Positions 581 to 62,860 of a DNA stretch of 64,000 nt are shown one piece after another (the stretch's first letter is position 1; each line of letters begins with the position of its first letter). A program made the position numbers and the translations under genes. The notes below the pieces were generated by a model. That model did not search any database, was not told the origin of the DNA, and saw only the letters and a program-made list of their open reading frames with translations. Origin of the DNA: Sarea resinae (lineage: Eukaryota); assembly GCA_026026165.1 (NCBI GenBank), contig JAPEUD010000090.1:1-64000 (forward strand), in the 5' to 3' direction.

Positions 581-586
<6 letters not shown>

Positions 587-11470: not shown

Positions 11471-13845
11471 ATGGTTGCGATGCCCTCTTCGTCGCCTGCC
11501 GAACACACGTATAGCCCTCGTTTTGGACCGTCTCATCATCGAGAAGCATCGTCAACTGCCGACGTCAATTCTCAATACGCGCTTCGATCCGCCCAAGGAC
11601 GGTCTGACGATGATGAGCTCGATCCCCTTCTCCCGTCCACTTTGTCTTACTCTACCTCTTCTCCTTGCCCTCCCACCTCGACAATGCTCCCCCAAACTCG
11701 CACCATCATCCTCTGTGCTGTTGCTGTGATGTCCATCGACGTCGGCTTGTCTCTGTGTCTGGCCCCGCGCCTCCGCTTAGTCGAGTCCATCATCTGCACG
11801 GATTATTACCGGCTCAAGGATCCAGGCTTGATTGGCAGCGACGGCAGGGTGGAGGAGAAGCACTGCAAGGTGGGACGGGTGCAGGAGGAGGTGGCCATAT
11901 TGATGGGGTGGTTGGGGCTCTGGGAGGGCCTGCCGGGTGTCTTGCTCGCTGTGCCCTACGGTCTGATGGCCGATGTGAGCGGCAGGAGAAAGGTGCTGAT
12001 GTGGAGTTTTGTGGGCTTGTTTGGGTCCACCGTGTGGGGTCTTTGTGTCTGTAAGTTTCGCATTTTCTTCTTTCGACGGGAGTTTGGTTGCTATTGACTG
12101 TGTGATGTGATTTTATATGTTTCGCTCAGATCCTCTAACCAGTTGTTTGTCATGCGCCATGGAAGGCTTCAACTTCCTTGATCTCTATTTTGGTTTTATC
12201 ATTTGGCAGTCATATTCTAAACAACATCAATCGTAGTCTATCTCGCGTTCCCCATTCGCCTGATATGGCTCTCATCCCTCTTCATGTGCATCGGCGGTGG
12301 CCCCATTGTCGCCAGCGCCCTAGTCTTCACCATCATATCGGACATTACCTCAGACGAGCAGCGGTCAGTACACATCCAGTCTGCGAAAACTTACGGAACT
12401 GACAAGAAAGACAGCGCTACGATATTCTTCCAGATTCAAGCCTCGGTACTAATCTCTGACATCGTCGCGCCCCCACTATCTTCCGTGCTGATGTCCCGCA
12501 ACATCTGGGCCCCTCTACTTCTCGGCGCCTTCATCCAAGCACTCTCGATCCTCGTACCAGCGTGTATGCCGGAAACTCTGCATATCACCGCCAGGGAAAC
12601 CGGCCATCCCTCGAGGCAGGAACCTGCTTTTCAACTTGCTGATGATGATGAGATGGACGGTAGATTTGAGGAGACTGATTCGAAGACAAAAGCTGGAGAC
12701 TATGGATCTCGGATAGAGGCGCTGAAAGGAGCAACGTCGTTTCTCTTCCAGGACCGCAAAATCTCGGTGCTGGTCCTCTCGTTGGTTGTCGTCCGGGTTG
12801 GGAAGCAGGCGGTCGAACTGCTGTTGCAATATGTGTCCAAGCGCTATGATTGGAGCCTAGCCAAGGTATTGCCTCCCTCGTCTGTTGTCCGGCTTTAGAC
12901 ATTTCTTTTCCTTTACCTTCGCAGTCCAAGATACTAGACTTGATACTTATACATCTGTCAGGCGGCTTTTCTACTTTCCATCAGAGCCTCCGTCGAGCTG
13001 GTTCTTCTCGTGGCCGTCTTACCAATCTTCGGCAGCTTCCTCCTGACCCGCCACGGTATGGCTGCCGACGTCAAGGATCTGCTGACCATCCGCGTCAGCA
13101 ACTTCTTTGCTATCGTGGGATGCGTCGTTATCGCGCTGGCGCCTGCACCAGGTTTGATGATTGTTGGTTAGTCTTTTATATCTCCCCGTCCATCGCCCAT
13201 CAAATGAACCGAAGAGATCACCTTTTTTCTGTTGTTTGCCGTCAAAACTCGAATGCCCTAATCCCCCTTTTTTGTGTGGGCTAAGGTTGAATGCTTTTCA
13301 ATTTCACTACAATGACAATAACACAAACGACAAAAGAACTGACGCACGCGCGCATGATACTAGGTCTCATCATCTACACGCTCTCGGCCGGCTTCCAAGC
13401 CGCCTCCTTCTCGCTCATCACATCCCTCTCTCTCTCCCATTCCTCATCCTCTCCCAAACCTCGCACTTCTTCCCCACCATCCCCGTTACCCTCTCACGCC
13501 CACCTCCACCCCGATACCCACAAACCAACCACCACCCCCCAAACACACACCGCAGCTCTCTACAGCATCCTCGCCATCATCCTAGCCCTCGGCGGTGTCG
13601 TCGCCGCACCTCTCCTCTCCGGCGCGTTTTCACTGGGTCTCCGACACGGCGGCGCGTGGATCGGCCTGCCGTTCTGGGTCGCGGCCGCCTTGTTTTCGGC
13701 CGCGGGCGCCGTCTTGGCCGTGTGGGCTTTGCCGGGGATGGCGGAGGGGGGAAGGGGATGGGGAAGGGGAAGTGGGGTTGCGGCGAGAGAGGCGGCTGGT
13801 GGGGGGGATGGTTATGGTCGTCTTGAATATGCGGGAGAGGGTTAG
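11471..13845 (+). CDS. MFS transporter; exons approx. 11471-12050, 12237-12363, 12415-12865, 12962-13165, 13364-13845
   Basis: Multiple TM segments and fungal MFS motifs (APRLRLVESIIC..YY, E.HCK...VQ.E.A, PYG.MAD..GRR.V, IGGG, APPLSS.LM, WIGLPF). Canonical GT-AG introns; start codon choice uncertain. Confidence 0.87.
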
Positions 13846-14897
13846 ATGTGGTTTTTTCTTTTTTTCATTCCCGGGCTTTGGGGGGCTTTGGGGTTCTTAT
13901 AGGGTGGATGGATGGCTGGGCGTCTTGGTTGATTCGCCGATGGTTGTGTTGGCGCACAAAAGGCATGCATGTCTGATCCGAGCGTTTTCTTGTTGATTCG
14001 GAAGGGGAAGTCTTCTGTACGTCTTGAATCCAGTCGCTGCAATCATGGTTCTTGCTTCTTGGTTCTTGCTTCTTGCTGGATTGCGTGACTTGCTTTGCTT
14101 GATATTTGCCTGATCGATTGCATATTGCATATTGACCGGTCTGCGCCAATGTAGTAATCCTTCCCCCACGGAGGTCTCCGGCCGAGCACTCACGCTCTCA
14201 TCTCCCCTTTTCCCTCTGCGGTTCCCGAATTGTGAGATTCGATCCACAACCGATTACCCATGCGTTCTACGGACGACCAGAACCGACACACTCCCCTCCC
14301 TCTCCTATCCCCCCATCCAACCCTACTCTGCAATGCTAATGAGCAGTCTTGCTTTGAGTAAGGACTAATCATTATAGACAGAACTGGGTCCAAGAGGAAT
14401 ATCGTCATAAATGAAGTTTGCGGGCTTTGTCCTCACTCGGTAGAAGAACCCATTCCGCGCACCGGTCAACAAAGCTTATGAATGGGAGCAGGGCTAGCGG
14501 ACTGGGAAACGGAAGTGCTCTCCAACTTCAGATGGAGTCAGAGACTGCGACGCCAAACCAAAAGTCGAATTCAAGTCACCACAGCTCTTAAGCAGAGCAT
14601 CCAACACTTCAAACTTAGAGCTGGATACAGTGTGGAAAGAGATGACAAGTGTCTGCTAATAACGCCTTCCTATGGTAACCTCTGTGATGTGGTTACGTAG
14701 CTGGAAACATTTGTGAACCGGTTGGATATAATGCAGATTTCGAAGTACTTACCTGAAAATAGTACCTACGCACCCGAGCTCATCCGCGATGTATCCCTAG
14801 AGCTGTGCGGGCCACAATTAGACTAGACTAATCCCGCGGTTTAATACCTCATTTCACTAGAGTACCCTTACATTACCTCCACCCCCAGAGTACATAT

Positions 14898-16946: not shown

Positions 16947-17741
16947 TTATCCTTCTAACTGTGGATTGAGAGAAGACATATTGAATTGTTGCGGACCAGG
17001 TAACGAAGTTAGGGGGAAGTGGTGCGAGCATTGATCCTGCTGTAGTTGTGGACCAGGTAACGGATTCGGCGGGAAGTGTTGTGAATATTGATCCTGCTGA
17101 ACTTGATAGGAACTGTTCATTTGAAGAAAAGCCCTGGATTCCTGAATGGTCATATCACTTGTTTCTTAGCTACTAACAGGCCATTTGATGCTTACTAGAT
17201 CGCTGATAGGGTAGGCTCTCGCTGGCATGACACTTAGTGGCTGACTGACAGGTGCGGGCTGGTCGATTACTGATGGTTACTAAAGTCAGCGCTAGGATTC
17301 CGATAGTCTTAGCAAGATGTTCAACTTTACTTGGACCGTGTTTTTTACTGCTCGGCAAGGATTTCCTGAGTTCCCTTGCGTGATGTTGTAGCTCTTCCTA
17401 AGCTTCATCTGATATGCCGAAATATATTCTCAGAGAATCGAGATGGCTGATAAGATTCTTTATTGCCACAACAAATTCATTAATCTCTGTCTGGCAACGC
17501 ATCAGAGCTCTGTATTGTAATTAGCTTTGTGACTGCTGACTGAAGCAGGACTTACTCCTCCACCTTGAGCTGATAGCATGTGCGCTCTAAACGAGCGCAG
17601 CGCTCGCACGCAGGACGTCCTTGGTCGCAAGGTTTCTTCTCCTTCAAACAAGACTGGCAGCCCTTTGTAGATCGTCAGGCACAGTTAAGTCAATGGTTTT
17701 GCAATTATACTGACAACTCGCTATCGCTGTTGCGAGCTCAT
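16947..17741 (-). pseudogene. Zn(II)2Cys6 transcription-factor pseudogene (3' end uncertain, may extend to ~16140)
   Basis: Exon 17662-17556 encodes GCQSCLKEKKPCDQGRPACERCARLERTCY (C-x2-C-x6-C-x6-C-x2-C-x6-C), between GT-AG introns 17714-17663 and 17555-17510. In-frame TAG stops at 17723-17721 (MSSQQR*RV) and 17400-17398. A Q/P-rich segment follows. Confidence 0.8.
16990..17100. repeat. imperfect ~57-bp tandem duplication encoding QQDQ.S.HFP...LPGPQ on the minus strand
   Basis: ggaccaggtaacg...ggg.aagtg.tg.ga..attgatcctgctg occurs twice. Confidence 0.75.
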
Positions 17742-17991
17742 TGTGCGCTTGCTTCATGAAATACTCTAGTTCAAAATCGTCAAGACAGGATAAGCGGCTT
17801 CGAAAGACAGAATCACTGTGATTGCTGTATAGAAGTATGTATTGTGAGGCGAAACCATAGATGCGCGCCTATGGATGGGTAGTGTATACACCCAGAGCTA
17901 CAACCTTATGAAGATTGAAAATTAGAATTCCCATCCCCCTCCTCCTCACCCTCCTTCCCCTCCCTCAACTCCCCACCCGCACACCCGTACA

Positions 17992-19247
17992 TTAACGCAA
18001 CCCCTTCCTCAGTACTGTCCGAAACGGGAAGATCTCCGCACGGTCGAGATCCCACACGCCCTCGGCGATATACGGGTCACTGCGAAGTTTCTCCAGGATA
18101 TGAATCTTGTTGGTTGCGTTGACGACCATGATGGAGCCGGTGAAGGGGCGGCGTGTCGGTTGTGATGGCGAGGGGTGGTGGGTGAATATGGGACCTATTG
18201 AGGGGGGGGAAAGGGGGTGTTAGGTGTGGCTGATGTGGTTGATGTGGGTTGGATGGGGATGGAGAGGTGAGAGGGGTGCAGAAGTGGGGCGTTGGGGTAA
18301 GAGAGATGGTTTATAAGGGGAGGGTCGGCGGAGGTGGTCGGCAATAAGGAAGAGGGGGGATAAGGGAGGAAAGCGAGCGAGAGGTGCGAAGAGCGGTGTC
18401 TCGAGCGGGTGTAAAAGACCACAGGGAAGGAAGGCAGTCAGGAGGCAGCGGAGCCAACATTCTCAAAACCTGCATGAAGATAGTATAAAAGAGGCATGAA
18501 GCTAGTAGAGCCCCCCCCCCCAAAAAAGGATGAGCAATAAGTACACGCGAGCGAGCGAGCAGCGACAGCACTCCAGAAAAAAGCAGGAGTGGAAATTCGA
18601 CCATCAGGGAGAGCAAGCACGTATGTGGTGTTGAGTGATCCGGAACAAGAAAACTGAAATCGGAGTGCTTACCGGCCCACGAGACATAGCCTTCCTGGTG
18701 CAGGCGGACGAAGTTCGGGCTGTGGCGCGGGCGGATCGCGATTCGGTGGTCGAGCTTGAGGAGGTTAGCGTTAGGGATGTGGGGTTGGTTTGTGAGGGTG
18801 TGTGGGGCTGGTGGGGAGTCAAGAGGAATATGGATAAGGGGGATTTTTCGAGAGAGGGGTGGACTGGGGGAGTTTTGAGGGAGATGGGATTGCAATTGCG
18901 AGAAGCTCGAGGACTGGGATTCGGGAGTTGGCCTGGTAGAATGGAAAAGTTGAACACATTTTAAAACACAAGTGGAAGCGGAAAGAGAAGGAAAAGGATC
19001 ACAGTAAGCAGAAGAGTAAGGGAGGACATCTAGCACAAGTAGAGATTATTACCACGCCTGGCTTGTCAGGGAATACGATCAGCCACTCTCTCGTGGACTC
19101 GGACTCCGTGGACGTTGTGCTGAATAGTCTGCTGTTCTGGACGGGAGTTTGAAGGGTGTGATAATATGGCCGTGAGGTGGTGGTAGCCAAAGGTCTTCGG
19201 AGAGCCGCACGAAGAAGGCTGGGTTGTGAGGTCTGGGGCCGGAACAT
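17992..19247 (-). CDS. YCII-related (dimeric alpha+beta barrel) protein with predicted mitochondrial presequence; exons 19247-19053, 18754-18673, 18194-17992
   Basis: Spliced product ...REWLIVFPDKPGV|LDHRIAIRPRH...GYVSWAG|PIF...FTGSIMVV...LRSDPYIAEGVWDL..AEIFPF follows the fungal YCII pattern. N-terminus is Arg/Ser/Thr-rich and lacks acidic residues. Confidence 0.85.
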
Positions 19248-20066
19248 TTTGCTTATGATTTCCTTATCGAGGATGAAGTTGCAGATGGAGTGTGAGTACA
19301 GGGGCTGAGCAAATGTGGGAAATATTCAAGAGGTAGTGGGCTAGGGGTCGATGCTCTCTGTTCCTGTTAGAGGAGAGAGGGGCGAAGGCTGGTGGAGGTG
19401 CTGGATTGAGTGCAGCTGATATAGGAGATTCTACTGTTTGGTAGATACAGTTGATAGCTCCATTGAAATGAGGGGTTATTGTCGCGGGCGTGTTGGAATA
19501 TTGAAGGCTAGACACCGCTCCGTATCAGCATCATTTACACAGTACGCGGCGTGCATTCTCCTCTGCCGTGTGGCACCCGCTTTGAAGCGGATAAAGATGT
19601 TGCCCCGCCATGTGGCGTACACTACGGAGCTATCTCATGCTCGTGATAGCCTGGGGCTTAATGAGGCTTAAGAAGGCTGAGCCTTTGCCATAGTCTTTGG
19701 GACGTCGATATTGCGGTGTAGGCAGCGGCTGGATTATCGACAGGGGTGCCAATATCACCAATTGCCTACGGCTTGAAGACATCTAGAAGCCGCCAGCAAA
19801 ACTCGCATCACTGACACCTCAGTTTCATAGCCCTTGCTTACGATGTACGGCCGCCACGCATTATTTTATCGCTACTTGGTCGTGCTGTGCAACAGGCACA
19901 GCCCATCAGCACGGCCGGATCTACCCCGCTTCACGCTTGTCTGCTAATTGTTCACCAGACGGATTCTTATCGCGGGTTCTATTTTATCATGAAGCCAAGG
20001 TGGAAGAGTAAATAAAAAGATAAGACCAGAGAATGCCCCAGGCGTAACCGTCGCGCTGCAAACACA

Positions 20067-21127: not shown

Positions 21128-22206
21128 ATGACCCCTCAGTCCCTCTACCAAGACTACGCGCCCAGCCCCACATTTGAAAACATCGCCATTCTACTCATTG
21201 CGCTCTTCCTTCTGAGCAATATCAAAATTCTACCAGGAGTATGGCACGTAAGCATTGAATGACTCGCAGCTGCTCCCTTGGCCCATCTTATCTTATCCGC
21301 TGCCATACACTAAAACACAAACTATAGTACCGGCTCTTCAAAGCGCTCTTCACGCAGTTCATCCTCCATGCCTCGTCACCCACCGCAACGTCTAGAACTC
21401 ATGAGAATACCCCACCATCCCTCTTCCGCCCGCTAGTCACGGCCTCGCACGTCCCACTAGCGGAATGCGACTACAACCTCCACAAGAGCAACAGCACGTT
21501 CTTCACGGACCTAGACATCAATCGGACCCAACTCCTGGCACGCCTATTCAAGTCGGTACTTGGAAAAAGGCGCCCCAGGTCTCGTCGGCATGGCACAGAG
21601 GGCAAGACAACTGAAGGCAATACAGGGAGCGGAAAAGTCGGCCTCGCGCTCGGCAGCGTCATGTGCACTTTTCGCCGACAGATCAGGCCGTTTCAGAGAT
21701 ACGACATCTGCTCGCGCGTGCTGACCTGGGACGACAAGTGGCTCTATGTCGTCAGTCATTTTGTTGAAAAAGGGGCTATTCATGTGACGCCTGCCTTCGG
21801 TCCTGGAGAAGAATCAGTAGTAGCCGCAGACGCAGCCGCAGCCGCAGCCGCAGACGGCGACAAGGAACGTGCACGTGTACATGTGCCCGAGACAGCTATC
21901 TATAGCTCTGCAATCGCGCGCTACGTCTTTAAGGAGGGTAGGATCACCGTCGCACCCTCGGTCGTCTTGGAAGAGGCGGGGTTCCTTCCGTCTTCTGCCA
22001 ACAGTGAAGAAGAGACCGAAGGCACGAGGGCAGAGGTCGAAGGCGACGTGCGGGTCTTAGAGAGAAGCACATGCACCCAAGTGGAGGAGGAACGACGGAA
22101 AGGAGAGAAGTTTGCCCGCGCTTTAGCGATGCTGGGCGATTTGCCCGAGGCGTTTGGTGGAGAGTCAATTCCGCCGTTGGGGCGATTCGGGGATTTGTTC
22201 TGGTGA
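21128..22206 (+). CDS. thioesterase-like hotdog-fold protein (THEM6/4HBT-like fungal family; AtnL-like); exons 21128-21247, 21328-22206
   Basis: N-terminal TM segment plus NIKILPGVWH|YR. Family motifs ECDYNLHKSNSTFFTDLDINR, F.RQI.PFQ.Y, RVLTWD.KWLYVVSHFV and YVFK.GR.TV.P. Confidence 0.85.
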
Positions 22207-24073: not shown

Positions 24074-26177
24074 ATGTCCTTTCCACCACCACCGGTCGAG
24101 CACCTGGGTAAGTCTACACTGAGTGCAGTCTCCTTCACAATCTATCTATAGCCCTGGATCTGCTTTCCTGCTATATATAGCCCTTATCAAGGCGCTCATT
24201 CGCTCCTCATTATTGCGTTTTATGCTGGATACGTCTAGTTGCTAACAAACATCAATACCACAGACTGGGAGAACCTGGGCATTGCAGCGCGGGAGGGTAT
24301 GTCTTTTACCTCTCCCTCCTCCACTCATTCCAAAGGGCTTTCTGTTTCACCGTTCTTCTTTCCCACCGCCTTCCCGTTCCTGCTGCTTTACCATATTACC
24401 AAGGCCCCTATTCCCCAGAGGAAAGAAATCCCGTCCTATAAGCCGCGATTACACCCGAATGAAGCTCACCCTTCCCTCTAAAGTCAAACCAGCACCACTC
24501 CAACTGACACGACCGTAAAAACAGTCAACGGCCACGTCCAGAGCACCTATAGCGCTGCCGAAGGGAAATGGACCGAGCCCGAGTTCGTGCGGGACCCGTA
24601 TCTGCGCGTGCATGGGTTTGCGCCGGGACTGAACTATGGTGAGTGAGTGAATATGTGTACGAGGTTCGAGTCCGAGCGTCAGTCGAATTCTGTTTATTGA
24701 CTAGATATGACCAATTTCTGTGTCAATTACTCTAGAAGACAACGATACTGCTATCATATCTTTTTGGTTTTCGTTTCACTACCTTTCTTCCTTCATTTGC
24801 GCGTATGCGTTTTGAGCTGGTTTTGGCCGTGGCTAAGATAGATCATGTCTGGACTTCCTAGCACATGTTTCATATAAGAGGAGATGGCGTCAAGGCCGAG
24901 GGAGAAAATGGAAAAGAGAAACAAAAGAGAGGAGGGCAGGCTCCTACCAGAAAAGCCCACACACGCAACATAGCTAACACACTCCTCCCTTTCACGCAGG
25001 TCAACAAGCATACGAAGGTCTTAAAGCCTACCGCACGCCGGCCAACGAAATCCAGATTTTCCGACCGCACTCGCACGCGCTCCGTCTGCAGGCCTCGTCT
25101 GCCTACGTGTCCATCCCCGCCGTGCCGACCGAGCTCTTCACGGCGGCCGTCTCGCTGGCCGTCGCGCTCAACGCCGCCTTTGTGCCGCCGAGCTCCAGCG
25201 CCGCGGGCCTGTATATCCGGCCCGTGGTCTTCGGCTCGGGCCCGCAGCCGGGGCTACAGCCATCCCCGACCTACACCTTTGCGGTACTAGTGGCCCCCTT
25301 CACGGCCTACCACGGTCGCAGCCCACTACCAGCCGTCGTCATGGACGACTTCGACCGCTGTGCGCCCCGCGGCACTGGCGCTGCTAAGGTCGGCGGCAAC
25401 TACGCCCCGCTTTTCCGCCATGCCGACGCGGCCCGCCGCCAGGGCTGGCCCGTGACGCTGCATCTGGACGCGGCGACCAGGAGCCAGGTCGAGGAGTTTG
25501 CGACCTCGGGCTTCGTCGGCGTGGGCAAGCGGCGAGATGACACCAAGGGCCAGGGTCAGGGCCAGGGCGACGGCGACCGCGGCGGCGACCGTGACAGTGA
25601 CAACGCCACCACCACCGCCAAAGAACTCATCACCCTCGTCGTCCCGTCCTCGCCCAACGTCCTCCCCAGCATAACATCATCCAGCATCCTCACGCTGGCG
25701 CGCTCATTCGGCTGGGCCGTCGAGCAGCGCGCCATCGCATTCGACGAGCTGGGCGACTTTGACGAGGTCCTGGCCGTCGGCACCGCGGCCGCCGTGCTGC
25801 CCATCCGGTCGATTACCCGGCCGTCGACGGGCCAGACGTTTGTTTTTGGTAGTAGAAGTGGTGGTGATGGCAAGACAGGTAGTGGTGAGATTGAAGGCGG
25901 CGGCAGCCCAGCAGGGCCCGGAGAGTGCTGCCAGCGCCTGCAGGAGGCACTGAGCGGTGTGCAGAAAGGCGAGCGCGCGGACGAGTGGGGCTGGTGTTTC
26001 ACGGTGCATGAGCCCGCGGGCTGGGTCGGCCATGGTGACGGTGTTGCCGTTCGTGCCGTTGGAGGCCGAGACGAGCAGCGAGAAAAGGAGGAGGACGAGG
26101 AGAAGAAGAAGGGATCGAGATCGAGTGTCGGGTTTCTGGGCTGGTTGGTCGGTTGGCTGTGGCCTGGTTGGTCGTGA
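24074..26177 (+). CDS. class IV PLP-dependent aminotransferase, branched-chain amino acid aminotransferase-like (AtnH/AtnJ, TOXF type); exons 24074-24107, 24264-24296, 24525-24638, 25000-26177
   Basis: MSFPPPP...DW.NLG, NGHV, PGLNYGQQAYEGLKAYR, IFRP, YIRP, PLP lysine in AKVGGNY, EEF.TSGF, LPSITS and GTAA. Confidence 0.93.
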
Positions 26178-47900: not shown

Positions 47901-50900
47901 ACCAATCGGCCTCCCAAGATTTGAAGGAAGGCTGCTCTGTGTTGCAGGAGGATTGCCAGAGCAATATATAGAACACTCGGCCGGCCCATAGCAGATTATT
48001 AAATCCAGATGATCAGCCCAGGTCCGTATATTTCCATTCGTAGCGGCCTCGCCCCCAAGGACTAATCTCTTTAGTCCCGGAACGTCGCGGGGGTCAAGTA
48101 AATTAGCCACCGTTGGTGTCATGAAGGTATAGTTGACATTCATCTTGTTGATGACACCAGCAACGTTATTCAGGCGATCGAGCTCCGAAGGAATGCAGAC
48201 GCATGCACCACGCATGATAGTAGTTAGGAAGTCACCCACACTAACGTCAAATGTGTGGGCAGCGAATTGAAACACACGAGTACCAGGGCCGATTCCCCAG
48301 GCGCTGCCGTGCGCTCGGGAGCTCGTACAGTATGAAGCATGTTCGAGTACAATACCCTTGGGTTTCCCTGTACTACCCGAAGTGAAGAGAACCACCGCAG
48401 GATTGTCAGGCTTAGCTCGAGATGGCAAACTGCCTTGCCTTATCGGAAGCTGTTCGAATAATGACGGTCCCGCAAGGACAACGGCATTGACCAAATGTTC
48501 GAATAGATGGCCGTGCTGCGGTGCCGCTACCAATATGGTAGACTCGGTATCCTGGATTATGCCTTGAAGTCGATCAGGAGGGTGGGTAGGATCCAGAGCC
48601 ACACAAGCGCCACCAGCTTTCAAGACCGCCACCATTGCGACCACATTGTAAAGCGACTTGTCAAAGCAGAGCGGAACCAGCATCTCCGGACCTACTCCCA
48701 ACTCTACGAGATGCCATGCCAATTGATCGGAAAGTTCATCGAGCTGAGCGTAAGACAGATCGCCGTCCCAAGCACAAACTGCCTGGGCATCAGGCTGAGC
48801 TAATACCTGTTGTTTGAAGATTCCAGGAATGCAGTCTTCGACAACCTCGGGAGTCATAGAGTTCCACGACAGTATTTGGGCCCTGTCAAACGAACTCAGC
48901 ATATTGATTGCTCCGACGAACACATCGGAAGAGCTTGAAAGCTGATTGACCAAGTGTTCAAGCTGATACATTATATGCTGCATTTGCTTCGTCGAGACAA
49001 CAGAGTTATCAAAGTCAGCCAAGAATTTTATTCCACCCTCACTCAACAAGCACTGCATAATCATAGCATAAGTGTGAAGTCCAAGTGCCGGAACATCTAC
49101 CGTCTCAAGGCCGATACTGCTCCTATGCAGCGCGTCTGCTGGCTGAACGACAAGGAGATTCTGAAAGTTGCAAGCTCGCTTTGAGTCAGCGCTAATGCTT
49201 CTGATGTTCTGTAATCCAGTATGCTCAAATGGGATCATGTCTGTTGCTTGGTCTTGGATCTTTCTCAGAAGATCAGAAACCGGTACAGTATCATCGAGGC
49301 CGACTCTGAGAGGAACCGTACAGATCGTTGGACCAAGTGTTTCAGTGATACCTGGTAGTGGAGCATTTCGGCCAGTCAATGTCACGCCAAAGACAACATC
49401 ATCTTCTGTATGAGAGTATTTCGAAAGAAGAATAGCCCAAGCCGCCCGAATCAATGTCGACGTAGTAATATCTGATTTGTCTGTTCGAGAGAAAGAAATT
49501 TTATGTTCGATGGTTTCATTCACCAAAGGCTGGTAGGCGGCAGAAGGGAGCTGTGGGAATTTTGGAGGCGCAGAGCCGGAAAGCTGCGATCTCCAATATG
49601 CCTTGGATGCCTTGGATGCTTCCACATCTCCGTCAGAAAGGTATTTGATGACGCGCTTGAATGGCGGCGCCGGTTCTACTAAAGATTTGGCATATGCCTT
49701 TTCCACTCTTTCTAAGATGAGCGGAATTGAAAATCCGTCTACGGTGGAGTGATGTGCCGTCCAGACAAAATGAGGCTCGTTGATTCCACTTTCGATGATT
49801 GCAAATCTCGTCAACATTTTGCCATACTCCATGCGATCTTGCCTATCAGCAAGTATGTAGTCTTCGAGACTTGAAGTGAGTTTCCAATTGATTTGGTGAC
49901 GAAGCACGACCTGACAGGAACCTAATTTGTCCGTGTGGATGATTGTAGTTCGCATTAGCTCAGCCTCCTGAAAGACAAGATCCCAAGCTGCACGGAATCG
50001 ATCTAGATCAACATTCTTGGGGATTCTGTACACATTCCGAAAGACGTATGCACTTGGCTCTTTCATTGTGATTGCCATAAGACCTTCCTGGAGTGGTGTG
50101 CATTGATATGCATCTTCGACCCTATCAGCTTCAATTCCGCACGACTCCGTAATCTCCCGAAGAAGGCTTTCAATGTTCGTGTTTTGAAGCAAAGAGAACG
50201 GTTCAATGTCAGGTTCGATGCCGTTTGTCACTGCTTGTCCGAAAAGAGCCATGTCGGAGAGCTTTGGATGTCGGAAAATGTCGGTGACAGCAAGGGATAA
50301 TCCCGATTTGCGTGCAAAAGTAACCAATTTCATTGCCCGAATAGAATCACCTCCAAGCCGGAAGAAATTGTCATCTGCCCCGATGAAATCTGCGGTGACG
50401 TTTAGAGCTTCCGCCCAAAGCGTCTGAAGACGCTTCTCGGCCAATGTCTCGGGATGCCGCTTCTGAGCATCGCCTAAGAAATATGAAGATAATTCCTCTT
50501 TCCGAAAGCTTCCTGCCAGTGAGCGGAGAGTGAGGCGATCCAGCTTCCCCGAGGTTGAAGTTGGCATGAATGCCAGGGGTATGTAAAGGGATGGTACCAT
50601 GTATGACGGTAGGGACTCGGTCAATCGGTCTTGTAGAGATCTCAAAACCGAGAGAAGCTCGTTAGATAACGGCAGTATCAATTTGTCGGAGGTGGCGACT
50701 CGTCTCGTTTCAAAGGCTAAGAACGCTGCTAGAACAGGTTTGTCATTCAAACTTTTCAACCTTATCATCTCCACAGCAGCGGTCTTTACAGCTTGAGAAT
50801 GTCGATTCACATGGGTCTCGATCTCGCCCATTTCAATACGCTGACCAAACATCTTGACTTGCGTATCTCTTCGTCCGATGAAGCTTAGAGTTCTATCCGG

Positions 50901-52882
50901 GTTGTAGCGTACCAGATCACCGGTTCGGTATAGTCTTCTCGACTTACTATTGCGCGGTAGCCAGGCCGGGTCCTCGATGAAGGCAGCATCTGTCTTTGCG
51001 GAGTCTTTCAGATACCCACGAGCCAGAATAGGTCCTTCTATCAAGAGCTCTCCGATACCACCGATTGGACATAGTCGCTGCGGGTTAGAAATCTCAGTAA
51101 CCCACATCAGAGCACCAAGACCAACCCCAATATTCGATGGGGGAGTATCGGCGCTCAGCTGAGCCAGTCCAGTAGACCAGATGGTCGTTTCGGCTGGTCC
51201 GTAAATGTTGATTAGGTAGACCTGATCTGCCCATCTTCTCACGCTGTCTTCTGTGACGGCTTCACCACCGAGAGACAACGTCTCCAGGCCCGGAACATCT
51301 GCAGGATTCAGAAGACTTGCAACCGTTGGGGTGAGATACGCCCAGTTGACTCGTAATCGGCTGATCACTCCTGCCAAGTCGTTCATCCTCTCTTGCTCCG
51401 ACGGGATAATGATACAGCCCCCGTGCATCAAGGTAGAAAATATCTCTCCGATACTGACATCGAAGGTGTATGCGGCGAACTGTAGGACCCTTGATTGTTG
51501 AGAGAGACGCATCGCCGCACCATGCGCTCTTGCACTCGTGCATAAAGCCTGGTGTTCTAAAACAATGCCCTTTGGCTCGCCGGTGCTCCCTGAAGTAAAG
51601 ACAACGAATGACGGACTTGTCGGGTTAGACGGACGAAGTTTTGCATCGAAATGAATGGGGCGTGCTTGGATCGTTTCAAAGAGCGTCGGGTTGACCTTGA
51701 CGATATGCGGTACATGTCCTTTCAACATATCCTCATATTGCTGGCCGACGACGACAACTGAAGCATCGACTTTGCGTATTATGCCCTCTAAACGACTGAT
51801 TGGATGCATAGGGTTCAAGGCCACGCACGCGCCACCAGCTTTCAAGATTGCTAACATGGTCACAACAGCCCAGCGGGACTTGTCGAAACAGAATGGTACT
51901 AAGACTTCCTCGCGGACGCCTAAAAGATGAAGATGGCCCGCTAGAGACGATGCTAGATGGTCTAATTGTACGTACGTGAGAGATCCGTCCCAGGAGACTA
52001 ATGCAGGCGCATCAGGCTGTGTCCGAACCCTTTCTTCTACCAGGTTATGCATGCACGAGGTATATGATTCCGGATAGTCGGCATTCCAAGCGAAGACTTG
52101 TTCCTCGTCATGCTTGCTAAAGAGGTCCAAATCGGATATACTCGTGGAGGAATTTTGTATGATTTCGGACACACATTTGTCAAAGGTACTGGCCAAGTTC
52201 ACAGCCTGAACTTCCGCTAATACCGAGCTCAGAAAGCCAAATGTGACTTCTACCCTTTCTTGTAGAGTATTGATATTGATTGCGATAATGATCTGTGCGT
52301 AACGAGGGTCAGAAACAAGAATATTGAATTCAGCACTTAGTAGAGAAATACCTTGTCCCGTTCAAGTCCAGCAGTATCCCCGGAGATTGGATCTGTTCCC
52401 ATCCCAACATCTCTTCCCATCTCAAATTGCATTAGGGTGTCCGAAAGGGGAGACCCTTCTCGACCAACATATCGATAGATGTCCGAGAATGAATCATTGA
52501 TCGATATCTGGTGAGAAGCTTCGTCGTCGAAAGAGTGTAAAACTTGAGCGGCAGAGACGCCTTCCGCAAGGTCCGCTCGACAGATTCTTGCCTTTGGTGT
52601 CCCTCTATCAAAATTGATTTGATGAAAACAAATGTCCGAGGAGGCCGTGAAGCGTCCTAGGATTGCTGCCCAAGCGGTCTGGAATAGTGCGGGCAAGGCA
52701 ACATTTTGGTTGGCGCAGAAATCATGCAGCTTCTCACAATGCTCTTCAAGATCGAATTGGTAAGTTTGGCGCTCCTTCGCAGCATCGGTGTTTGACAGTG
52801 TCTGGGCGAAATAGCATGATTCGGCACCGGCCAAATATCTCTTCCAGTATTCGGCCGAACTCGACCCTTTGCGGTTTTCCAT
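29961..52882 (-). CDS. hexamodular NRPS, C(partial)-A-T-C-A-T-E-C-A-T-C-A-T-E-C-A-T-C-A-T-R, ~7620 aa; exons 52882-52352, 52292-29961
   Basis: Six FTSGSTG.PKG A-domain motifs (~51590, 48380, 43800, 40560, 35930, 32680). Five GGDS thiolation motifs (~50350, 47120, 42550, 39305, 34670) plus AGLNS (~31380). E domains HHLVVDLVSW (~46560) and HHLFVDLVSW (~38715), each with EGHGRE and TVGWFTT. Five internal C domains. Terminal reductase TGGTGFLG (~31090) and GYAQTK. Intron 52351-52293 joins the upstream 181-aa ORF in frame. Confidence 0.97.
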
Positions 52883-53877: not shown

Positions 53878-53985
<108 letters not shown>

Positions 53986-54427: not shown

Positions 54428-55559
54428 ATGGCCTCCACCGCCCCATCGATGCCGGAAAGAGAAGATTCTTTTTTCCGCCGTTTCCTCCGCTCGCAATTCA
54501 CCGCTTTGCCCTACCCGTCCACCTCGTTCGCGGACCAAACAATCATCATCACGGGCGCGAACACGGGCCTTGGCCTCGAAGCCGCCCGCCACATCGCCCG
54601 CCTTGGCGCAACAACCGTCATTCTCGCCGTGCGCGATCTGAAAAAGGGTCACGCAGCCAAAGTGTCCATCGAAGCGTCAACAAAGCGCACAGATAAAGTG
54701 GTAGAAGTGTGGCAGCTGGACCTGGCTCACACAGAAAGCGTACGCGCCTTTGCCGAGAGGGCGAACGGCTTGAAGAGGCTAGATGCCGTGATCGAGAATG
54801 CGGGCATGGTGACAGAGAAATTCCAGATCGTAAACGACGGGCATAGCGCGGCAGAGAGGACGATCGCCGTCAACGTCATCAATACCTTCCTGCTCGCTCT
54901 GCTTCTATTGCCTAAACTCCACGCCACAGCTAGCGATTGCAACACGATTCCCCGACTTGTGATCGTAGGCAGCGAGGGGTACGAAGTGGCTGCATTCAAG
55001 GAAGCAGAAGCCGACGATATCTTTGCCGCCCTGGCCGATCCAGCAAGATCAGACATGGAAGACAGGTCCGTCTCCTTTCCCCTTCTCCCTTCTTTAGCCA
55101 GAGAAATCGCCATCTCATTAACACGTGTCAAACCGATCTAGGTACAATACCTCGAAACTCCTATCCCTCTACGGCGTCCTCTCCCTATCATCCCACCTCC
55201 CTCATCCCACCAACTCCAAGCTCTCCCCTACCCAACCAGGCATAACACTTACCACCCCCACCCCCGGATTCTGCCGTTCCTCCCTCCTCCGCGAAGCGCC
55301 GTGGTACGCGTCGTGGATCAACGCGCTCGTCCTGAGGCTCCTCGGCCGCAGTGCCGAGGTGGGCAGTCGAACGCTGGTCCATGCTGCCGAACCGCACCAC
55401 CCAGAGACCCACGGGCGTTTCCTGCGCGACTGCCACGTCGAGCCTCTAGCACCGTTCGTGCGCGGTGAGAGGGCCATCGAGGTCCGAGAGAGGGTCTATG
55501 CTCAGCTGATGGAGCGCCTAGAGCGCGTCGCGCCCGGTGTCACGGACCTGCTGATCTGA
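54428..55559 (+). CDS. short-chain dehydrogenase/reductase (retinol dehydrogenase-like; AtnD-like); exons 54428-55065, 55142-55559
   Basis: TGANTGLG Rossmann motif, LAVRD..KG, LDLA, ENAG. Catalytic YxxxK (R|YNTSK) follows the intron, then PGFC.S.L.R and GSRTLV.AA. Confidence 0.93.
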
Positions 55560-56285: not shown

Positions 56286-59200
56286 CTAATGGCTCGCGGG
56301 GTCAGATCCGGGCTCGAGATAACTTTCCCACTGTATGCAAGTCAGCACCAAGCACTCCAGCCAGAGCGAGAGAAAGCAAAACAACGACAATATATATGCA
56401 AGCATGCAAGTAAGGCGACAGCCAAGAAGGGTTTACAAGGTACAGCAGAAACTCACGTTATCCAAAATACCCTCGATGACGGAACTCCCAGTAGCAGCGG
56501 CCACGATCTCGAAGTACTCCCTAGACAGCTGGAACGGCTCCGCCACGAGATTTGGCACGTACTTGTCTTCCAGTTTGTCGGCATCGACCGCTTCGGGCGG
56601 AATGTGCGTCGCGAGAAAGTTGCGGAACGGGTCGACGCCTGATCGGAGCAGTCGGCTGTGGAACGGGATGTGGATGCCTCGCAGCGGTATGGTGGCTATG
56701 CCGCGCTCGAGATCGAGCGGATGTGGCTTCTGCTGCGTAAGGAGGGCGGAGGTGGTGATGACGTCGGTGAGAGTGGTGGCAGAGGGGTAGGTGAGAGCCT
56801 TGATGGACGTTTTGTGTGCCGAGAGGCGGTTCAGGACGGATGTCAGGATGTCGAGGGAATCGAGCTGGACGTGGGTTAGATCGCGGACATGTGGAATTTT
56901 GAGAATTGGACAGCGAGAGCAGGAGAGGGCGAATGATAAGAGGGGATTTACATCACCAGCGCATACGTATTGCGTATCTGCTACGTTATAGTTGACGATC
57001 TCGAGGAAACCTCCTCGTACGGCAAGGACGGACTTGATGACGAAGTCGATATCACTTTCGTCAGTTCCTACTCAACAATCAGCACTGACGCAATCTGACT
57101 AGTTGCTGAAACACGAGTACAGTACGCACCTTTGGATACCCGACTAGGATCGATAGCGCACATGGAATAGTTTGTACGCCCTGCATCATCATGCTCAACT
57201 GCGTTCTGCATGGTCAACCCGCGGTAGAAGACAACGGACGCGAGTGTATCGACCGGTATGACTTCAGCTATGGCAGCCAGAGCGGAGTACTCTCCAAGGG
57301 AATGGCCGGCGAATGTTGCTTTCTCGTCTATCAAATGTTTCGCCCGCATGTCTTTGAAATGCGCCAATTCCATCAAAGCCAATGCTGGCTGCGTGAATTG
57401 CGTGGCATGGAGTAGGCCCCGGGGCCCACGGAATGTATAGGATGGTGTGGTTTCGCTGATATCCTTGAAAATCTTTTCGGACTTCATCGTTCCATCTTGT
57501 TGGACAGCTTCGTACAAGAGTTGCATGTAGTTATGGCGAACTCTCACCCCTCGAGAGCCGCCGAAGTGGATGGTCAATTCTTTGGGGTTCTTGCGGATGA
57601 TGTCTGTGATGGCAAAGCCTGCTCTATTTTAGATTCGTCCGAGGCAACGGCATGAGAACAACTTACCGTAGCTGTCCAAGAAGTGAGTGTCGGCCTGATC
57701 CCACACCTGTCGTGCCACTGGACTGGTAGCATATAAATCCATGCCCATTGCCGGCTCCTGGCTGCCTTGTCCGGTAAAGATGTATGCTGTTCGAGGCTGC
57801 TCGATTTCCGCCCGTCCTTGAAGGACTCTTTCGCCGGAACGAGCATTGGTTGCCTCGACGTCCACTAATTTCTTGCCGTCGATCATACCGGAATGTGATA
57901 TCGTAACCAGTAACTCATCTTTCGGAAGGACAATACCCAGGAAAGAACAGTCCCAGTTTCTCATGCTGCCTGAATCAGTCCCCGAGATGCTGGACTCGAC
58001 AAGGCCGCGGACCATAGCACTGGTACACATGCCATGAGTAATCGCCTGCTGATGGCCTGCACATTGCGCAAATATGCGAGACACGTGGATAGGGTTGTAA
58101 TCTCCGGACGCGCGAGAATATGGCTCATTGGACTCGGGCATTTGCAGCCTGAGTTCTGCATGCAAGGTAATTGGTCTTTCGAAGATGAATGGCTGCTTAA
58201 CTGGAGATCCATGCCTTTGGAGGAAATCGGTGACGGCGTTCTTGACGGATGAACCCGCTGAGTAATTAACTGTTGCCACCTCAATGGCCCCTTTCGAGCT
58301 CTGAAGCACGACTCGGCCGGTAGTATCTACACGGTCGTATTGTGTATAGTCGCTATATGAATAGAGGCTTTCTAGATCAAACAACAAGGTTTTGTTCAAG
58401 AGGTCAAGCTTGGCCCCTTCTCCGGTGAGATGAAACCAATCCTTCGAGCCTAGGATTGTCTTGCTTCTCATCGAGTCAATTTCAAGTTGCATCAACGGTT
58501 CCGATTTCTGCTCAAAGGCAGTCTCGAAGTCGTTGTAAGATCCACGGAATAGGAATTGACTCGTGAGAGCTATAATCGGCCTGCGGTCGCGCGAAATGGT
58601 CCCGCGCACTTCAACGACCTTGCCCGAATTTCTTTTTATAGTGATTGACCCTATCTGAGCAGTGGAGTCCAGGATTTCTCCTTGGCGGATTGGCTCAGCA
58701 TCCCCAAGCATCTCAATCGAATTCTTTAGATGAACAAGCTTTAATAAATCACCGTCAATGCCGTTCGGGAATAGAGCTGCCATGATTGCTTTCCAAGCAA
58801 CCACAATAGCAAAATCGAGCGGCACAGAGGCTCCTGTTCCTAGCCCGTCTAGATATGCTTCATTCCGATTATGAATAGCCCCAACAAAGTTTTTGACAGC
58901 AAGGCCGCAAATTCTCATCTCTCCGCCGTCGAAGGTGTCTGATATTGAAGAAAGTGTGACAGTATCATCGATGTTCCAGAGCGAACGGTAGAACGCCTTA
59001 ATGCCGTTATTTCTGTCCTCCATAATCTCCCGGATAGGAGCGGATCCAGTATCCGGATGAAAAGAGAACCTCAGAAGCAAGCCACACGCAGTATTGTACG
59101 AGTTTCTTGATTCCCATAACATCACAAGGATCTCGTGTCTTGAGGGGGAGTAGACCTCTGCAGTGGGCGATGAGAAAGTGTTATCCCGCCGCTGCTCGCT

Positions 59201-62200
59201 CAAGCTTATGATAGCCTTTCCAGCAGCGTTGTCATGCCTGACTTCCACCTTGATTCCACGAGCTGGTGCAAATATTCTCTTGAAAGGATTTGGCACTAAC
59301 CTACGGTTCTGGACAATATGGTCTATGGTGAAAATAGCATGTTGCCATGTATGTTCCGGACAGGCAAGAAGAGAAAACCAAGAGTCTTCATCAGACTCTC
59401 CTAGGCTCTCATTCAGATGATAAGATACCGTCTCCTCCGTCTCCTGGACTTGGAGTCCTCGAATATCAAACTCGGACCGAGGTAAACCAAGTGTACCGCC
59501 GAAGTAGTCAACCACGGGGATATTGGAAGGCTGGCCGGCATGGGACTTTCCTAGAAGTTCTTCAATGTAGGCATTGTTAATCTTGTCTAGAATATCCTTG
59601 ACAGGTTCATCAATAACCTTCGAATGCCTTGCCGCGACTGGCCCTTGTAAGATGCACGTCCGACCAACATCCTCATCCACCACTGACACTAGGTCTTCGG
59701 ATTGCCAGAGTGAGTCTTTTTTGAACCAGTACTCGAAATTCTCATCTAATGCTGGTATAAAAGGCACGGGTTTCTGTCCGGATCGTCTACACAGAACCAG
59801 GAAGTACTGAATGTCCTCAGCAGTGACTGGCTGATGGCGAGAAGCAGGATATGATAGTAGCAAGTCTTCCACGGCTACATATGGTGCATCAAGTTCATCG
59901 TAGCTCTTCAGTACAGCAACGCGGCGATTGGAATTCCGGGGAGCTAGTCGCTCTTCTAATCGCCGGATGAAGTCTCCCGTCAGATTTCTGTACGAAACGT
60001 CGATCCAGCGCTCTTCTTTCGCCACATACATAAGATCCACCATTCTCCAGACGCACTCCGCGTAGGTCATCGTACCAATATCGACGGGCCTTCCAGACTC
60101 GCTTCTTCCAAACCAAACCTTCTGAAAGTCTGTATTCAGCTTCTGGATGATATAATTTCTCTGCCTTAGCAGCTCCGGGACTCGCTTGGATCGTTCAAGT
60201 GCAAATATCTGTTTGTCCATTTCGGCCCAGAAGAGAACGCCTCTTGTAGCAAGCATATGTATTGGCTCACCCATCTCTGAAGTGACGGTGATGATTCCAC
60301 CAGCAGGCCCTTTATAAGTCTGTTCCCAATCGTTATCGTCGAGGCCTTTCGCGTCAACAATGGCTTGCTTTGCGGCAGGACTTGTGTGCGCTTCTTTAGC
60401 AGTCATAATTCGACTTCCTAGCAAAACACCATCAAATGGCATATATGGGAAGCCAAACTTCTCGGACCATGAGCCATTGAGATAAGGGATGGTATCGTCT
60501 GCCCCTCCAAAACCACTGCCAGCAACTAATATGATGTTGTGCATTCTCCTAATCTGGCTATATTTCTCAAGTATCGGCTCATGGAAGTCTTCGAAAGAAT
60601 GATGTCCACCTCCTCGGCCACCTGTCCACTGAAGCATAATTGGAAACCGAGGGTTGGCTTTTGCGATTTCCACAACGGCCTGGATAGCATTGACCGAGCC
60701 CGGCTTGAAGGCTATGTGCGAAATACCTATGTCTCGTATATAGCTATTAGCTGTCTCAAGAGATGGGACCCCAGCACCTATAGTCAGACCCGTAATTGGT
60801 AGGCCTTCGGAGCAGAGCTTAGTGATCAATGGGATCTGCCATCCTATTGACCGCGGATTTGCGTAGATGACATTGCAAGCTATTCCTCGGCCTGGAGAAA
60901 GTACAGCAACTAGCTTATGAATAGCTTCTTCTAAATCTTCGGCATTGTGATATCCTCCACAAGCGAGTTCGACGTAGTAGCCCGAATTCGTGATAGCGGC
61001 GACAAAGTCCCACGGTACGGTGCAAGGGGTCATACCGGCCACCATGATTGGCGGCAAGCCCAAGAACCTGCTCATTTTAGTATCGACAAATGTCTCTGCC
61101 ATAGATGTTTGAATCAAGTGGGGTCCATATGTGTTTCTCCAGTTGACGGCATAGGAAACCGGCCCTTTTGGGCTTGTGATTTCAGGCAAGTAGCCTAGGT
61201 CAGGGTTCGTCCCTTCGAGCGCTGTTGCTAGAACGATTCGTACGCCGGTACCATCCTTTTGTTGATTTGTAAGGCTAACGAGGCCGGTGGTTCCGCCTGG
61301 TCCAAAGTCAAGGATATGAGTGACTTGGCAAAATGCAGTAGCTTTCTGCCAGTAGACCGCATCTCTGGTGATGAGGCATACCATCTCGCGGACCAAATTG
61401 GAGGCCTTTCTAAGATCAGATCCAGTGTGGGTATCAAAGACGGGAATTCTAAGAGCGTCTCCCGAAAGGGAGATGTCTCTGAGATCTTCCATGATTAAAT
61501 CCATTGCCGCGCCTGCGTAAGGACTGTGGAAGGGTACTGTTATGGGTAGAAATCTGCTCGTGAATTGCATGACACGGTCTCCAAACGGGATTCTAGCTAT
61601 ATTCCGTTTGGGATCTTGGTTGGCCTTATAGGGCCGAAGCTTGATGTTGAGGCCGTATAGCGACATGGGCGGTCCCGCAATCACAAATTGGCGAGGTCCA
61701 TTGATCAGAGCGAAATGTATCTGTTTTGTTGATGGAAGATGATGATTGATCTCTTCTATATGCTTTTGCATAACAGCTTTCGGAAGTCCACGAACGCTCA
61801 GCATTGGTGACGGGCTTCCTTCTTCGTACTGCAATGAGTCTTGGATGACGGGAGCGGAGATGGAAGTGTGGGGGAAGATTTGCTGCGTTCGACATCCAAT
61901 CCAGAATAGTGTCCTCACAGCTCCCTGTGATGCTTGCTCGAATGACTTCCATGAGTCAGACATTGAAATGGCGGCCGCAATGACAATCCCCTGGGAATGG
62001 CCCGTGCTACCCCCCAAGAGCCCTCGGAGCTCACCGGGAGTTCTGCCGGATGTTTGGCATATGACAGAGTAGCGCATCAATTGGCCGACTCCGATCAGAG
62101 GGAGGCTCACGGGTGCAGAGAGGAGATATTCCAAGTCAGGTCGACTCTCCGGATTCTGTAACCATCCCAGAAAATCGAGACCTTTCGGATACAGTTCATT

Positions 62201-62860
62201 GACTCTCGAATCACACGAAAGTGACCGCAAGTCCGCCGAGAGTGGTACGAGGAGATCATCGAGGAACCCTGGATACGTATCATATGTCTCTTCCAATTCT
62301 TCAAAGTAGCTCTCTGCGCCTTGGCCATTGAAGATGGCGAAAAGCTGGGCTTTGCCCTCTGCCGCATCTCGGAAGAGGGCCGTCTCATGCTGCGACAACG
62401 GGCGATGAATCATTTGACACGATCTATAATAGGATTTGAGCACGGCTTGCTTCCTATCCTTGCTTCCTGGCAAAGTTGCGACCACAGTGTGAAGGTCGGC
62501 GTCGCGAAGGAAAACCTCTTCAAGCTCGCAGAGAAGGCATTCGAGGATCTTGTTAAAAGATAGTTGGCGATCTTCATCCTCCTCGATTTCGGCTCTTGAC
62601 GTGACTTCATCCACAAACTTCGAAAACAACTCCAATTCCGACAGGGGTTCCTGCCCCGAAAGAGACCCCGCGCGGTATAATCTGAGATCAGAAGTAAACG
62701 AATTCTCAATTTCGGAAATGTGAGCAAAGATCGACTCGCGGACAAAGAAGGAAAAGTGTGTTTCGCCATGTTGTAAAGTCAATAATCGGTCGGACGATGG
62801 ACGCGGTACAGAGATTCGAGTCTGCCAGGATGAGCCTGGAGAGGAGCTTCCTGTGCGCAT
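56286..62860 (-). CDS. fas1: fungal type I fatty acid synthase beta subunit (AT-ER-DH-MPT), ~2083 aa, probably a secondary-metabolism copy; exons 62860-57667, 57618-57130, 57067-56952, 56864-56457, 56330-56286
   Basis: AT GHSQG; ER VAGMTP, FKPGS, GGRGGGHHSFEDFH, WFKKDSLWQSED; DH SGDYNPIH and ITHGM; MPT FTGQGSQ, TQFTQPAL, AGHSLGEY, PFHS. Four GT-AG introns give a continuous frame ending ILDN|WESY. Confidence 0.95.

Follow-up and report, generated by a model that had tools for sequence, protein, structure and literature searches.

A candidate aspercryptin-family gene cluster in Sarea resinae, most likely for a related but distinct hexapeptide

We analyzed the first 64,000 nucleotides of contig JAPEUD010000090.1 of the fungus Sarea resinae (hereafter the window), in which a very large nonribosomal peptide synthetase (NRPS) gene lies among genes for a fatty acid synthase (FAS) beta subunit, a branched-chain aminotransferase (BCAT)-type enzyme, a short-chain dehydrogenase/reductase (SDR), a hotdog-fold protein and putative transporters. 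We conclude, with a probability of roughly 0.65, that these genes form a secondary-metabolite cluster of the aspercryptin family, similar to the atn cluster of Aspergillus nidulans, and that the product is most likely a linear hexapeptide related to, but distinct from, aspercryptin. The span considered here runs from 11471, the start codon of a transporter gene of the major facilitator superfamily (MFS), to 62860, the start codon of the FAS beta gene. A first-pass annotation of this DNA had described the locus as aspercryptin-like but probably not aspercryptin itself; it was right in this outline and overreached in detail, as it envisaged two lipid residues and a complete pathway.

A six-module synthetase colinear with AtnA

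The NRPS gene occupies 29961..52882 on the minus strand. Our gene model, join(52882..52352, 52292..29964), has one 59-nt intron (52351-52293) with GT..AG borders and encodes 7,620 amino acids. The translation is letter-for-letter identical to a database protein (P0001) recorded as "MAG: hypothetical protein M1819_007259 [Sarea resinae]", where MAG stands for metagenome-assembled genome; its source contig has 90,838 bases, of which the window covers 64 kb. A stop-to-stop scan of the window recovered an open frame of 7,466 codons on the minus strand, and one of 1,758 codons further to the right. An open frame of 7,620 codons cannot have arisen by chance.

Searches against Pfam found six AMP-binding domains, seven Condensation domains and an additional partial one at the N-terminus, as well as PP-binding and NAD_binding_4 in this protein. 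Together with profiles that we built ourselves, they give the domain order C*-A-T-C-A-T-E-C-A-T-C-A-T-E-C-A-T-C-A-T-R, in which A, T, C, E and R are adenylation, thiolation (carrier), condensation, epimerization and reductase domains, and C* is the C-terminal half of a condensation domain (approximately profile positions 170-418, without the half that carries HHxxxDG). The catalytic His and Asp are kept in all five full C domains, and both E domains have intact HHxxxD, EGHGRE and FNY(L/F)G motifs. The R domain, a predicted NAD(P)H reductase, retains TGGTGFLGS and YAQTK (TGxxGxxG and YxxxK). The last carrier domain has an unusual motif, GLNSI, which is intact and is found in this form in AtnA, the NRPS of the atn cluster. 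With six A domains, six T domains and an R domain with intact motifs, the prediction of a six-module NRPS with a terminal reductase held up.

To place this protein among known synthetases, we used its last 1,544 aa (region 5900-7443) as the query of a homologue search, which listed 120 matches. The reductase family is present in 14 of the 120, including the Sarea protein itself. Eleven of these 14, all from Aspergillus or Talaromyces, align over 99-100% of the query with 45-46% identity; the remaining two among the matches listed, from Cercophora and Podospora, are at 34% identity. One of the eleven (P0008) has in its 90% cluster the A. nidulans protein AN7884, "Nonribosomal peptide synthetase atnA" (P0121, UniRef Q5AUZ6). 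Because the reductase-bearing, full-coverage matches all belong to the AtnA clade and the alignment with AtnA is colinear, AtnA is on this evidence the closest characterized NRPS among the matches listed.

The alignment with AtnA consists of two colinear blocks, residues 11-4540 against 13-4545 and residues 4994-7615 against 4560-7214, each at 46.6% identity; off-diagonal alignments reach 31-38%. All six A domains pair one to one with those of AtnA, with 45.5-58.6% identity on the diagonal vs 36.0-44.9% off it, and the C domains are 39.8-49.2% identical to their positional partners, the off-diagonal values being 19.7-42.0%. AtnA shares with the Sarea protein the six A-T modules, the half C domain at the N-terminus, the E domain that follows module 2, the R domain at the end and a last carrier of the GLNS type. 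The half C domain is also found in two uncharacterized synthetases, from T. proteolyticus (P0004) and A. homomorphus (P0005), which have the module order and R domain of the Sarea protein and are 45-46% identical to it over the last 1,544 aa. This pairing of domains by position, with the R domain and last carrier motif intact, bears out the description of the locus as aspercryptin-like.

The two proteins differ in the gap between the alignment blocks, which corresponds to an extra E domain of about 450 aa after module 4 in the Sarea NRPS. Where Sarea has this second, intact E domain, AtnA has a 56-aa linker, and only linkers of 56-59 aa occur at this position in A. nidulans and A. homomorphus. 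The single-E architecture of AtnA, with an E domain after module 2 only, is thus not matched by the Sarea NRPS, which is a variant rather than a copy. As far as such comparisons go, the Sarea protein is a distant orthologue or family member of AtnA and not identical to it.

Adenylation pockets and predicted residues

We then compared the substrate pockets of the two synthetases. Ten pocket positions per A domain were read from alignment columns anchored on the FDxS, xLTPT, GGE, YGPxE and SGK motifs. Given first for Sarea and then for AtnA, the pockets are DVGYSGIIWK and DLGLSGMILK for A1 (6/10 in common), DVGFVGCIYK and DVGFTGCVYK for A2 (8/10), DALFLGGVFK and DALFMGGVYK for A3 (8/10), DAFFIGGMCK and DAMMVGVMIK for A4 (5/10), DVAFTGSIWK in both for A5 (10/10), and DVLFTGGIAK and DVLFIGGVAK for A6 (8/10). 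The A1 pocket of T. proteolyticus is the same as that of Sarea, and its A6 pocket agrees with that of Sarea at 9/10 positions.

We take the residue order of aspercryptin to be Ser/Ala-Thr-Ile/Val-2-aminocaprylate-Asn-2-aminododecanol, with modules 4 and 6 of AtnA presumably being those that load the lipid amino acids. With this order as the reference, residues 2, 3, 5 and 6 of the Sarea product are probably aspercryptin-like, while residues 1 and 4 differ. Residue 6 would probably be a long-chain 2-amino acid that is reduced by the R domain. The A4 pocket is hydrophobic, and at two positions it has a small residue (G, C), as A6 does; residue 4 could be a lipid amino acid, but the pocket comparison does not support this. 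The earlier proposal that the lipid chains enter as amino acid side chains thus has some sequence support at one position only, module 6. The product is probably a new but related six-residue lipopeptide and not a new kind of compound.

These comparisons also bear on whether the locus could simply be the aspercryptin cluster, or a strictly orthologous one that makes aspercryptins. AtnA is the closest characterized NRPS and has an equal module order, and the identical module 5 pocket and the 8/10 agreement of modules 2, 3 and 6 would all be expected of such an orthologue. Nonetheless, we consider this extremely improbable, because the identity is only 46.6%, an extra intact E domain follows module 4, and the pockets of modules 1 and 4 differ, sharing 6 and 5 of ten positions. 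Two features of the neighboring genes, described below, point the same way: a single aminotransferase is visible in the window, and no P450 is. The earlier statement that the product is probably not aspercryptin is therefore well founded.

Lipid-building genes on both sides of the NRPS

Genes that could supply long-chain 2-amino fatty acids, for FAS beta, an aminotransferase, an SDR and a hotdog protein, all lie within 30 kb of the NRPS, on both sides.

The FAS beta gene (56289..62860, minus strand) sits two genes away from the NRPS. Pfam, the mapping of the database protein P0129 and a phylogenetic tree identify it as a divergent paralogue of the fungal type I FAS beta subunit. The protein has 2,078 aa and the full beta-subunit set of Pfam domains (FAS_N, SAT, Fas1-AflB-like_hel, FAS_meander, DH, MaoC and Acyl_transf_1). 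We compared it with ten primary FAS beta proteins from different classes: their identity to each other is 73-90%, but their identity to the Sarea protein only 52-53%. Because of this difference, it is, by sequence, a specialized paralogue and not the housekeeping copy. All 120 matches listed for it fall at 50-53% identity, and those that have names are labelled fatty acid synthase beta, acyl-transferase-domain protein or hypothetical protein.

Besides the Sarea protein, the tree of 48 sequences contains four named primary enzymes and 43 library representatives. The representatives are those of 76 (P0369-P0444) with lengths of 1,650-2,400 aa, 33 shorter or longer ones having been dropped. The clade of primary FAS beta proteins leaves out the Sarea protein with a support of 1.0. 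Names were looked up for ten representatives, which are proteins of Phlyctema, Talaromyces rugulosus, Endocarpon, Penicillium and Colletotrichum; AtnM is not among these ten. In excerpts of PMC12918583, the FAS genes of the atn cluster are given as atnF and atnM.

The aminotransferase gene (24074..26177, plus strand) encodes a class IV, BCAT-type enzyme of 452 aa (P0249; Aminotran_4, E=1e-22). P0249 has 99% identity in the search table; the best tblastn piece, which reads across an intron, has 96%, and the first 11 residues were located at 24074. The lysine motif AAKVGGNY is present. The other 119 matches listed are BCAT-family proteins at 43-52% identity, one of which is a second Sarea protein (P0267, 46%) on a different contig; "TOXF" is the source name of three of the 120 matches listed. 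According to excerpts of PMC8262921, the atn cluster has two aminotransferases, AtnH (BatC) and AtnJ (BatD), which both belong to the BCAT family, are 28.9% identical to each other and were separately recruited. A BCAT-family aminotransferase as in the atn cluster is therefore present in Sarea at the family level, with one gene visible in the window where the atn cluster has two. To this extent, the aminotransferase part of the FAS-plus-transamination logic suggested by the first-pass annotation is borne out.

The region 25500-26177 (plus strand) of the aminotransferase gene encodes a low-complexity insert rich in Gly and Asp, and an extended C-terminus with a hydrophobic, W/L/G-rich tail at its end. 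Four BCAT-like matches are found on contigs that have the same base count as those of NRPS matches from the same species (Venustampulla, 593283; Amylocarpus, 113488; A. aculeatus, 73804; Polytolypa, 186199). BCAT-type aminotransferases may therefore lie near large NRPS genes in several other fungi as well.

The SDR gene (54428..55559, plus strand; adh_short, E=3e-17) has two exons, and splicing of an intron that ends at about 55141 restores the catalytic motif YNTSK. In the atn cluster we take AtnE to be the P450 for C-2 hydroxylation and AtnD to be the oxidoreductase; the SDR in the window is a candidate counterpart of AtnD. The intergenic region between the NRPS and SDR genes (53656-54100) contains a long serine-codon microsatellite with more than 40 Ser in one frame, and the kilobase that holds it has extreme dinucleotide ratios (TpA/ApT 0.18).

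The hotdog gene (21128..22206, plus strand) encodes a thioesterase-like protein of the 4HBT_2/THEM6-like type (PF13279, 4HBT_2, E=3e-10), with an Atlas score of 0.93 to ascomycete 4HBT_2 clusters. Its N-terminal exon (21128-21250, plus strand) is hydrophobic and helix-like. Both the hotdog protein and the aminotransferase may be attached to a membrane.

Points against the assignment and alternative uses of the lipid genes

Several observations weigh against the assignment to the aspercryptin family. The pocket positions were placed by motif anchors after the GrsA-PheA numbering rather than by an alignment to 1AMU (rank 22 in a PDB search), and the A4 pocket of Sarea shares only 5/10 residues with the module of AtnA that presumably loads 2-aminocaprylate. 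Among the 120 aminotransferase matches listed, none is AtnH or AtnJ by name, and none lies on a contig with the same base count as a contig carrying an AtnA-clade NRPS. In the FAS beta tree, which does not include AtnM, a long branch leads to the Sarea protein; it is placed as sister to the primary clade (SH-like support 0.94) and inside none of the secondary FAS beta lineages sampled. Seven promoter regions of the locus have no common motif, whether a 7-mer in at least six, an 8-mer in at least five or a 9-mer in at least four of them. Finally, two expected enzymes are missing from the window. We scanned by Pfam 140 stop-to-stop open reading frames (ORFs) of at least 85 aa, 11 of which had a family, and a second set of 150 ORFs (143 of 50-84 aa and seven longer ones scanned again), of which six had a match at E<=0.05, three of them meaningful. 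None of these 290 ORFs matched the P450 family, FxxGxRxCxG was absent from all six frames of the 64-kb window, and no ketoacyl synthase or FAS alpha was found by Pfam in the window, its last 1.1 kb included.

With neither a P450 nor FAS alpha in the window, the pathway is incomplete as seen. Both genes may lie outside the window, which is exceeded by the source contig by about 27 kb. The grouping of the FAS beta with primary FAS, which had been named as an outcome that would speak against the proposal, was found in part: the protein is sister to the primary clade, but at 52-53% identity, vs 73-90% among the primary enzymes, it is far more divergent than any orthologue.

These points bring up the possibility that the NRPS uses ordinary amino acids only, and that the neighboring genes for FAS beta, aminotransferase, SDR and hotdog protein belong to another pathway or to none. 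The lack of a common promoter motif is what one would expect in that case, as are a FAS beta closest to the primary enzymes and an aminotransferase whose listed matches are generic BCATs at 43-52% identity. Still, we regard this as rather unlikely. With no more than 52-53% identity to any primary enzyme, the FAS beta is no housekeeping copy, and another Sarea BCAT-family protein is encoded on a different contig. The genes also stand close to the NRPS on both sides, and excerpts of PMC12918583 and PMC8262921 describe the same combination of gene families around AtnA, including FAS gene(s) and BCAT-type aminotransferase(s).

A second possibility is that the FAS product serves as a fatty acyl group, such as an N-terminal cap or an ester, rather than being turned into 2-amino fatty acids, and that the aminotransferase acts in the supply of a different residue. 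Fungal lipopeptides often carry acyl caps made by an FAS, the NRPS starts with a fragment of a condensation-type domain, and no C-2 hydroxylase is visible in the window. However, this N-terminal fragment lacks the half with HHxxxDG, and the same half domain is present in AtnA and in the T. proteolyticus and A. homomorphus synthetases. No acyl-CoA ligase or free acyl carrier protein was found in the scanned ORFs of the window, and the A6 pocket agrees at 8/10 positions with A6 of AtnA, presumably a lipid amino acid loader. We therefore consider an acyl cap or ester unlikely, and retain the reading in which an aspercryptin-type synthetase incorporates a long-chain 2-amino acid.

A second epimerase and its possible history

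The second E domain of the Sarea NRPS raises the question of whether it was gained in Sarea or lost elsewhere. In the T. proteolyticus synthetase, T4 is followed by a 205-aa degenerate remnant of an E domain (P0004 residues 4534-4738). The remnant is 30% identical to the second E domain of Sarea over its first 150 aa (E=3e-19) and 61.5% identical over its last 26 aa, and it matches this domain better than any first E domain. In a tree of the C domains of four species, C3 and C5 form one clade, which is set apart from C2, C4 and C6 by a long branch with a support of 1.0; C3 has an E domain before it in each of the four species. The simplest reading of these sequence data is that modules 2 and 4 of an ancestral synthetase were each followed by an E domain, that both E domains were kept in Sarea, and that the second was lost in the Eurotiales.

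The C5 domain of AtnA (P0121 residues 4545-5027) groups with the post-epimerase C3 type although no E domain precedes it in AtnA. Its grouping, together with the T. proteolyticus remnant, raises the question of which configuration residue 4 (2-aminocaprylate) has when it enters aspercryptin.

One could go further and see the ancestral state of the family preserved in the Sarea locus: epimerization at positions 2 and 4, a hydrophobic or lipidic residue 4 in the D configuration, lipid amino acid(s) from a FAS recruited independently from the primary lineage, and possibly no P450 step. As a corollary, the additional aminotransferase that the Aspergillus atn cluster recruited separately might make up for the loss of the epimerase, if it delivers residue 4 directly in the form that C5 would accept. 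We consider this extended scenario doubtful.

Transporters, YCII genes and a candidate regulator

The remaining genes of the span encode putative membrane and accessory proteins. An MFS-type transporter gene with several exons (11471..13845, plus strand) encodes a putative exporter; its first exon matches MFS_1 at E=0.0011, under the curated cut-off, and the translations contain the typical motif GLMADVSGRRK (GLMADVSGRRKVL) and hydrophobic segments. An RTA1-like membrane protein is encoded at 27065..28355 on the minus strand, where three exon ORFs match PF04479 (E=7e-24, 5.5e-12 and 2.2e-4) and a start codon was located. The FAS beta, SDR, class IV aminotransferase, hotdog, RTA1 and MFS genes annotated earlier beside the NRPS are thus all recovered by Pfam, Atlas or motif evidence, weakly so by Pfam in the case of the MFS gene. 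To the left of the cluster span lie a second RTA1-like gene (3199-4400, plus strand; E=2.8e-56) and a three-exon gene of the beta-lactamase family (PF00144; 6746-8774, plus strand).

Two YCII genes had also been reported. The first, YCII-1 (17992..19247, minus strand), has three exons in our splice model (19247-19053, 18754-18673 and 18194-17992) and encodes 159 aa. Its Pfam matches to YCII (E=0.024-0.033) are under the cut-off, and its first match in the ESM Atlas, with a score of 0.96, is a "YCII-related domain-containing protein". The second, YCII-2 (approximately 20067-20695, plus strand), is divergent from YCII-1 and remains a tentative gene: its exons were read by eye, it has no Pfam match, and within a 1.9-kb region its C-terminal exon (20606-20668) matches 21 aa of the C-terminus of YCII-1 (38% identity, E=0.011). 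Both genes seem to begin with N-terminal extensions (19053-19247, minus strand, and approximately 20067-20200, plus strand) that are rich in Arg, Ser and Thr and poor in acidic residues, and by eye resemble mitochondrial presequences. The introns of this locus are long for an ascomycete, with 298 and 478 nt in YCII-1 and one of about 350 nt in the aminotransferase gene, which makes small genes hard to spot in ORF scans.

A Zn(II)2Cys6 exon (17555..17674, minus strand; Zn_clus, E=2.3e-5, 24.8 bits vs a cut-off of 21) marks a candidate cluster regulator. The frames downstream of it carry many stops, and no long open frame and no Fungal_trans domain were found over the next 3 kb. What looks like a canonical intron comes after the exon, and then a frame that resembles a coiled coil (17200-17800, minus strand); this region is the most AT-rich of the window (GC 0.46). 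According to a table of PMC8395729, the atn cluster has a Zn2Cys6 regulator, AtnN; the Sarea window has this one Zn_clus exon. The CGG-N9-CGG pattern occurs 7 times, vs 7.0 expected. GC skew is high in bins 1-2000 (0.37) and 18001-20000 (0.30), and all other bins are within about 0.14 of zero.

A further possibility is that the cluster is silent or a decaying relic without a product. The only regulator signal is one exon followed by stop-filled frames, and two expected enzymes are not in the pathway as seen. On the other hand, the 7,620-aa NRPS, the 2,078-aa FAS beta and other genes have intact frames and catalytic motifs. There is no signature of repeat-induced point mutation, as no 1-kb bin was flagged among the bins listed, the Zn2Cys6 region included. 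Introns in this genome are long, and the regulator may simply be incompletely read. A relic is thus decidedly unlikely in our estimation, and we continue to favor a functional aspercryptin-family cluster.

A possible route and its relation to known clusters

In the route that we envisage for such a cluster, a dedicated FAS, with its beta subunit encoded in the window and its alpha subunit presumably outside it, would produce a medium or long acyl chain, which the hotdog thioesterase would free. Oxidation at C-2 would then give a 2-oxo acid; the SDR could take part in this, and no enzyme for the hydroxylation is seen in the window. Transamination of the 2-oxo acid by the BCAT-type aminotransferase would yield a 2-amino fatty acid, to be loaded by A6 and possibly by A4. 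The NRPS would join, in order, a residue X1, a Thr-like residue (epimerized), an Ile/Val-like residue, a hydrophobic residue X4 (epimerized to D), Asn and the long-chain 2-amino fatty acid, with the two E domains acting on residues 2 and 4. Release by the R domain would leave an aldehyde at the C-terminus, and further reduction may turn it into an amino alcohol. The MFS and RTA1 proteins may export the lipopeptide or protect the producer, and the Zn2Cys6 factor would regulate the cluster.

A related logic is known from the HC-toxin (TOX2) and apicidin clusters, in which an FAS and a branched-chain aminotransferase (TOXC and TOXF) make a decanoic-acid-derived amino acid. Like the Sarea locus, these clusters have a dedicated FAS subunit and a BCAT-family aminotransferase beside the NRPS. 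Their NRPSs are four-module enzymes for cyclic tetrapeptides and have no reductase, whereas the Sarea enzyme has six modules and a predicted reductive release. A cluster of the HC-toxin/apicidin type is excluded by the six modules and the terminal reductase.

The locus therefore does not reveal a new kind of system. It does point to an undescribed lipopeptide from a little-studied fungus. In the literature library that we searched, no paper pairs "Sarea resinae" with "biosynthetic gene cluster". Whereas the atn cluster belongs to an Aspergillus, A. nidulans, this locus comes from a MAG of S. resinae, and the other full-coverage AtnA-type synthetases among the matches listed (45-46% identity) are only from Aspergillus and Talaromyces. 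The Sarea NRPS may thus serve as an outgroup for the evolution of the aspercryptin synthetases, with respect to the loss of the epimerase, the changes in the pockets and the recruitment of FAS and aminotransferase genes. It would also offer a second natural example from which to learn how adenylation domains choose long-chain 2-amino fatty acids.

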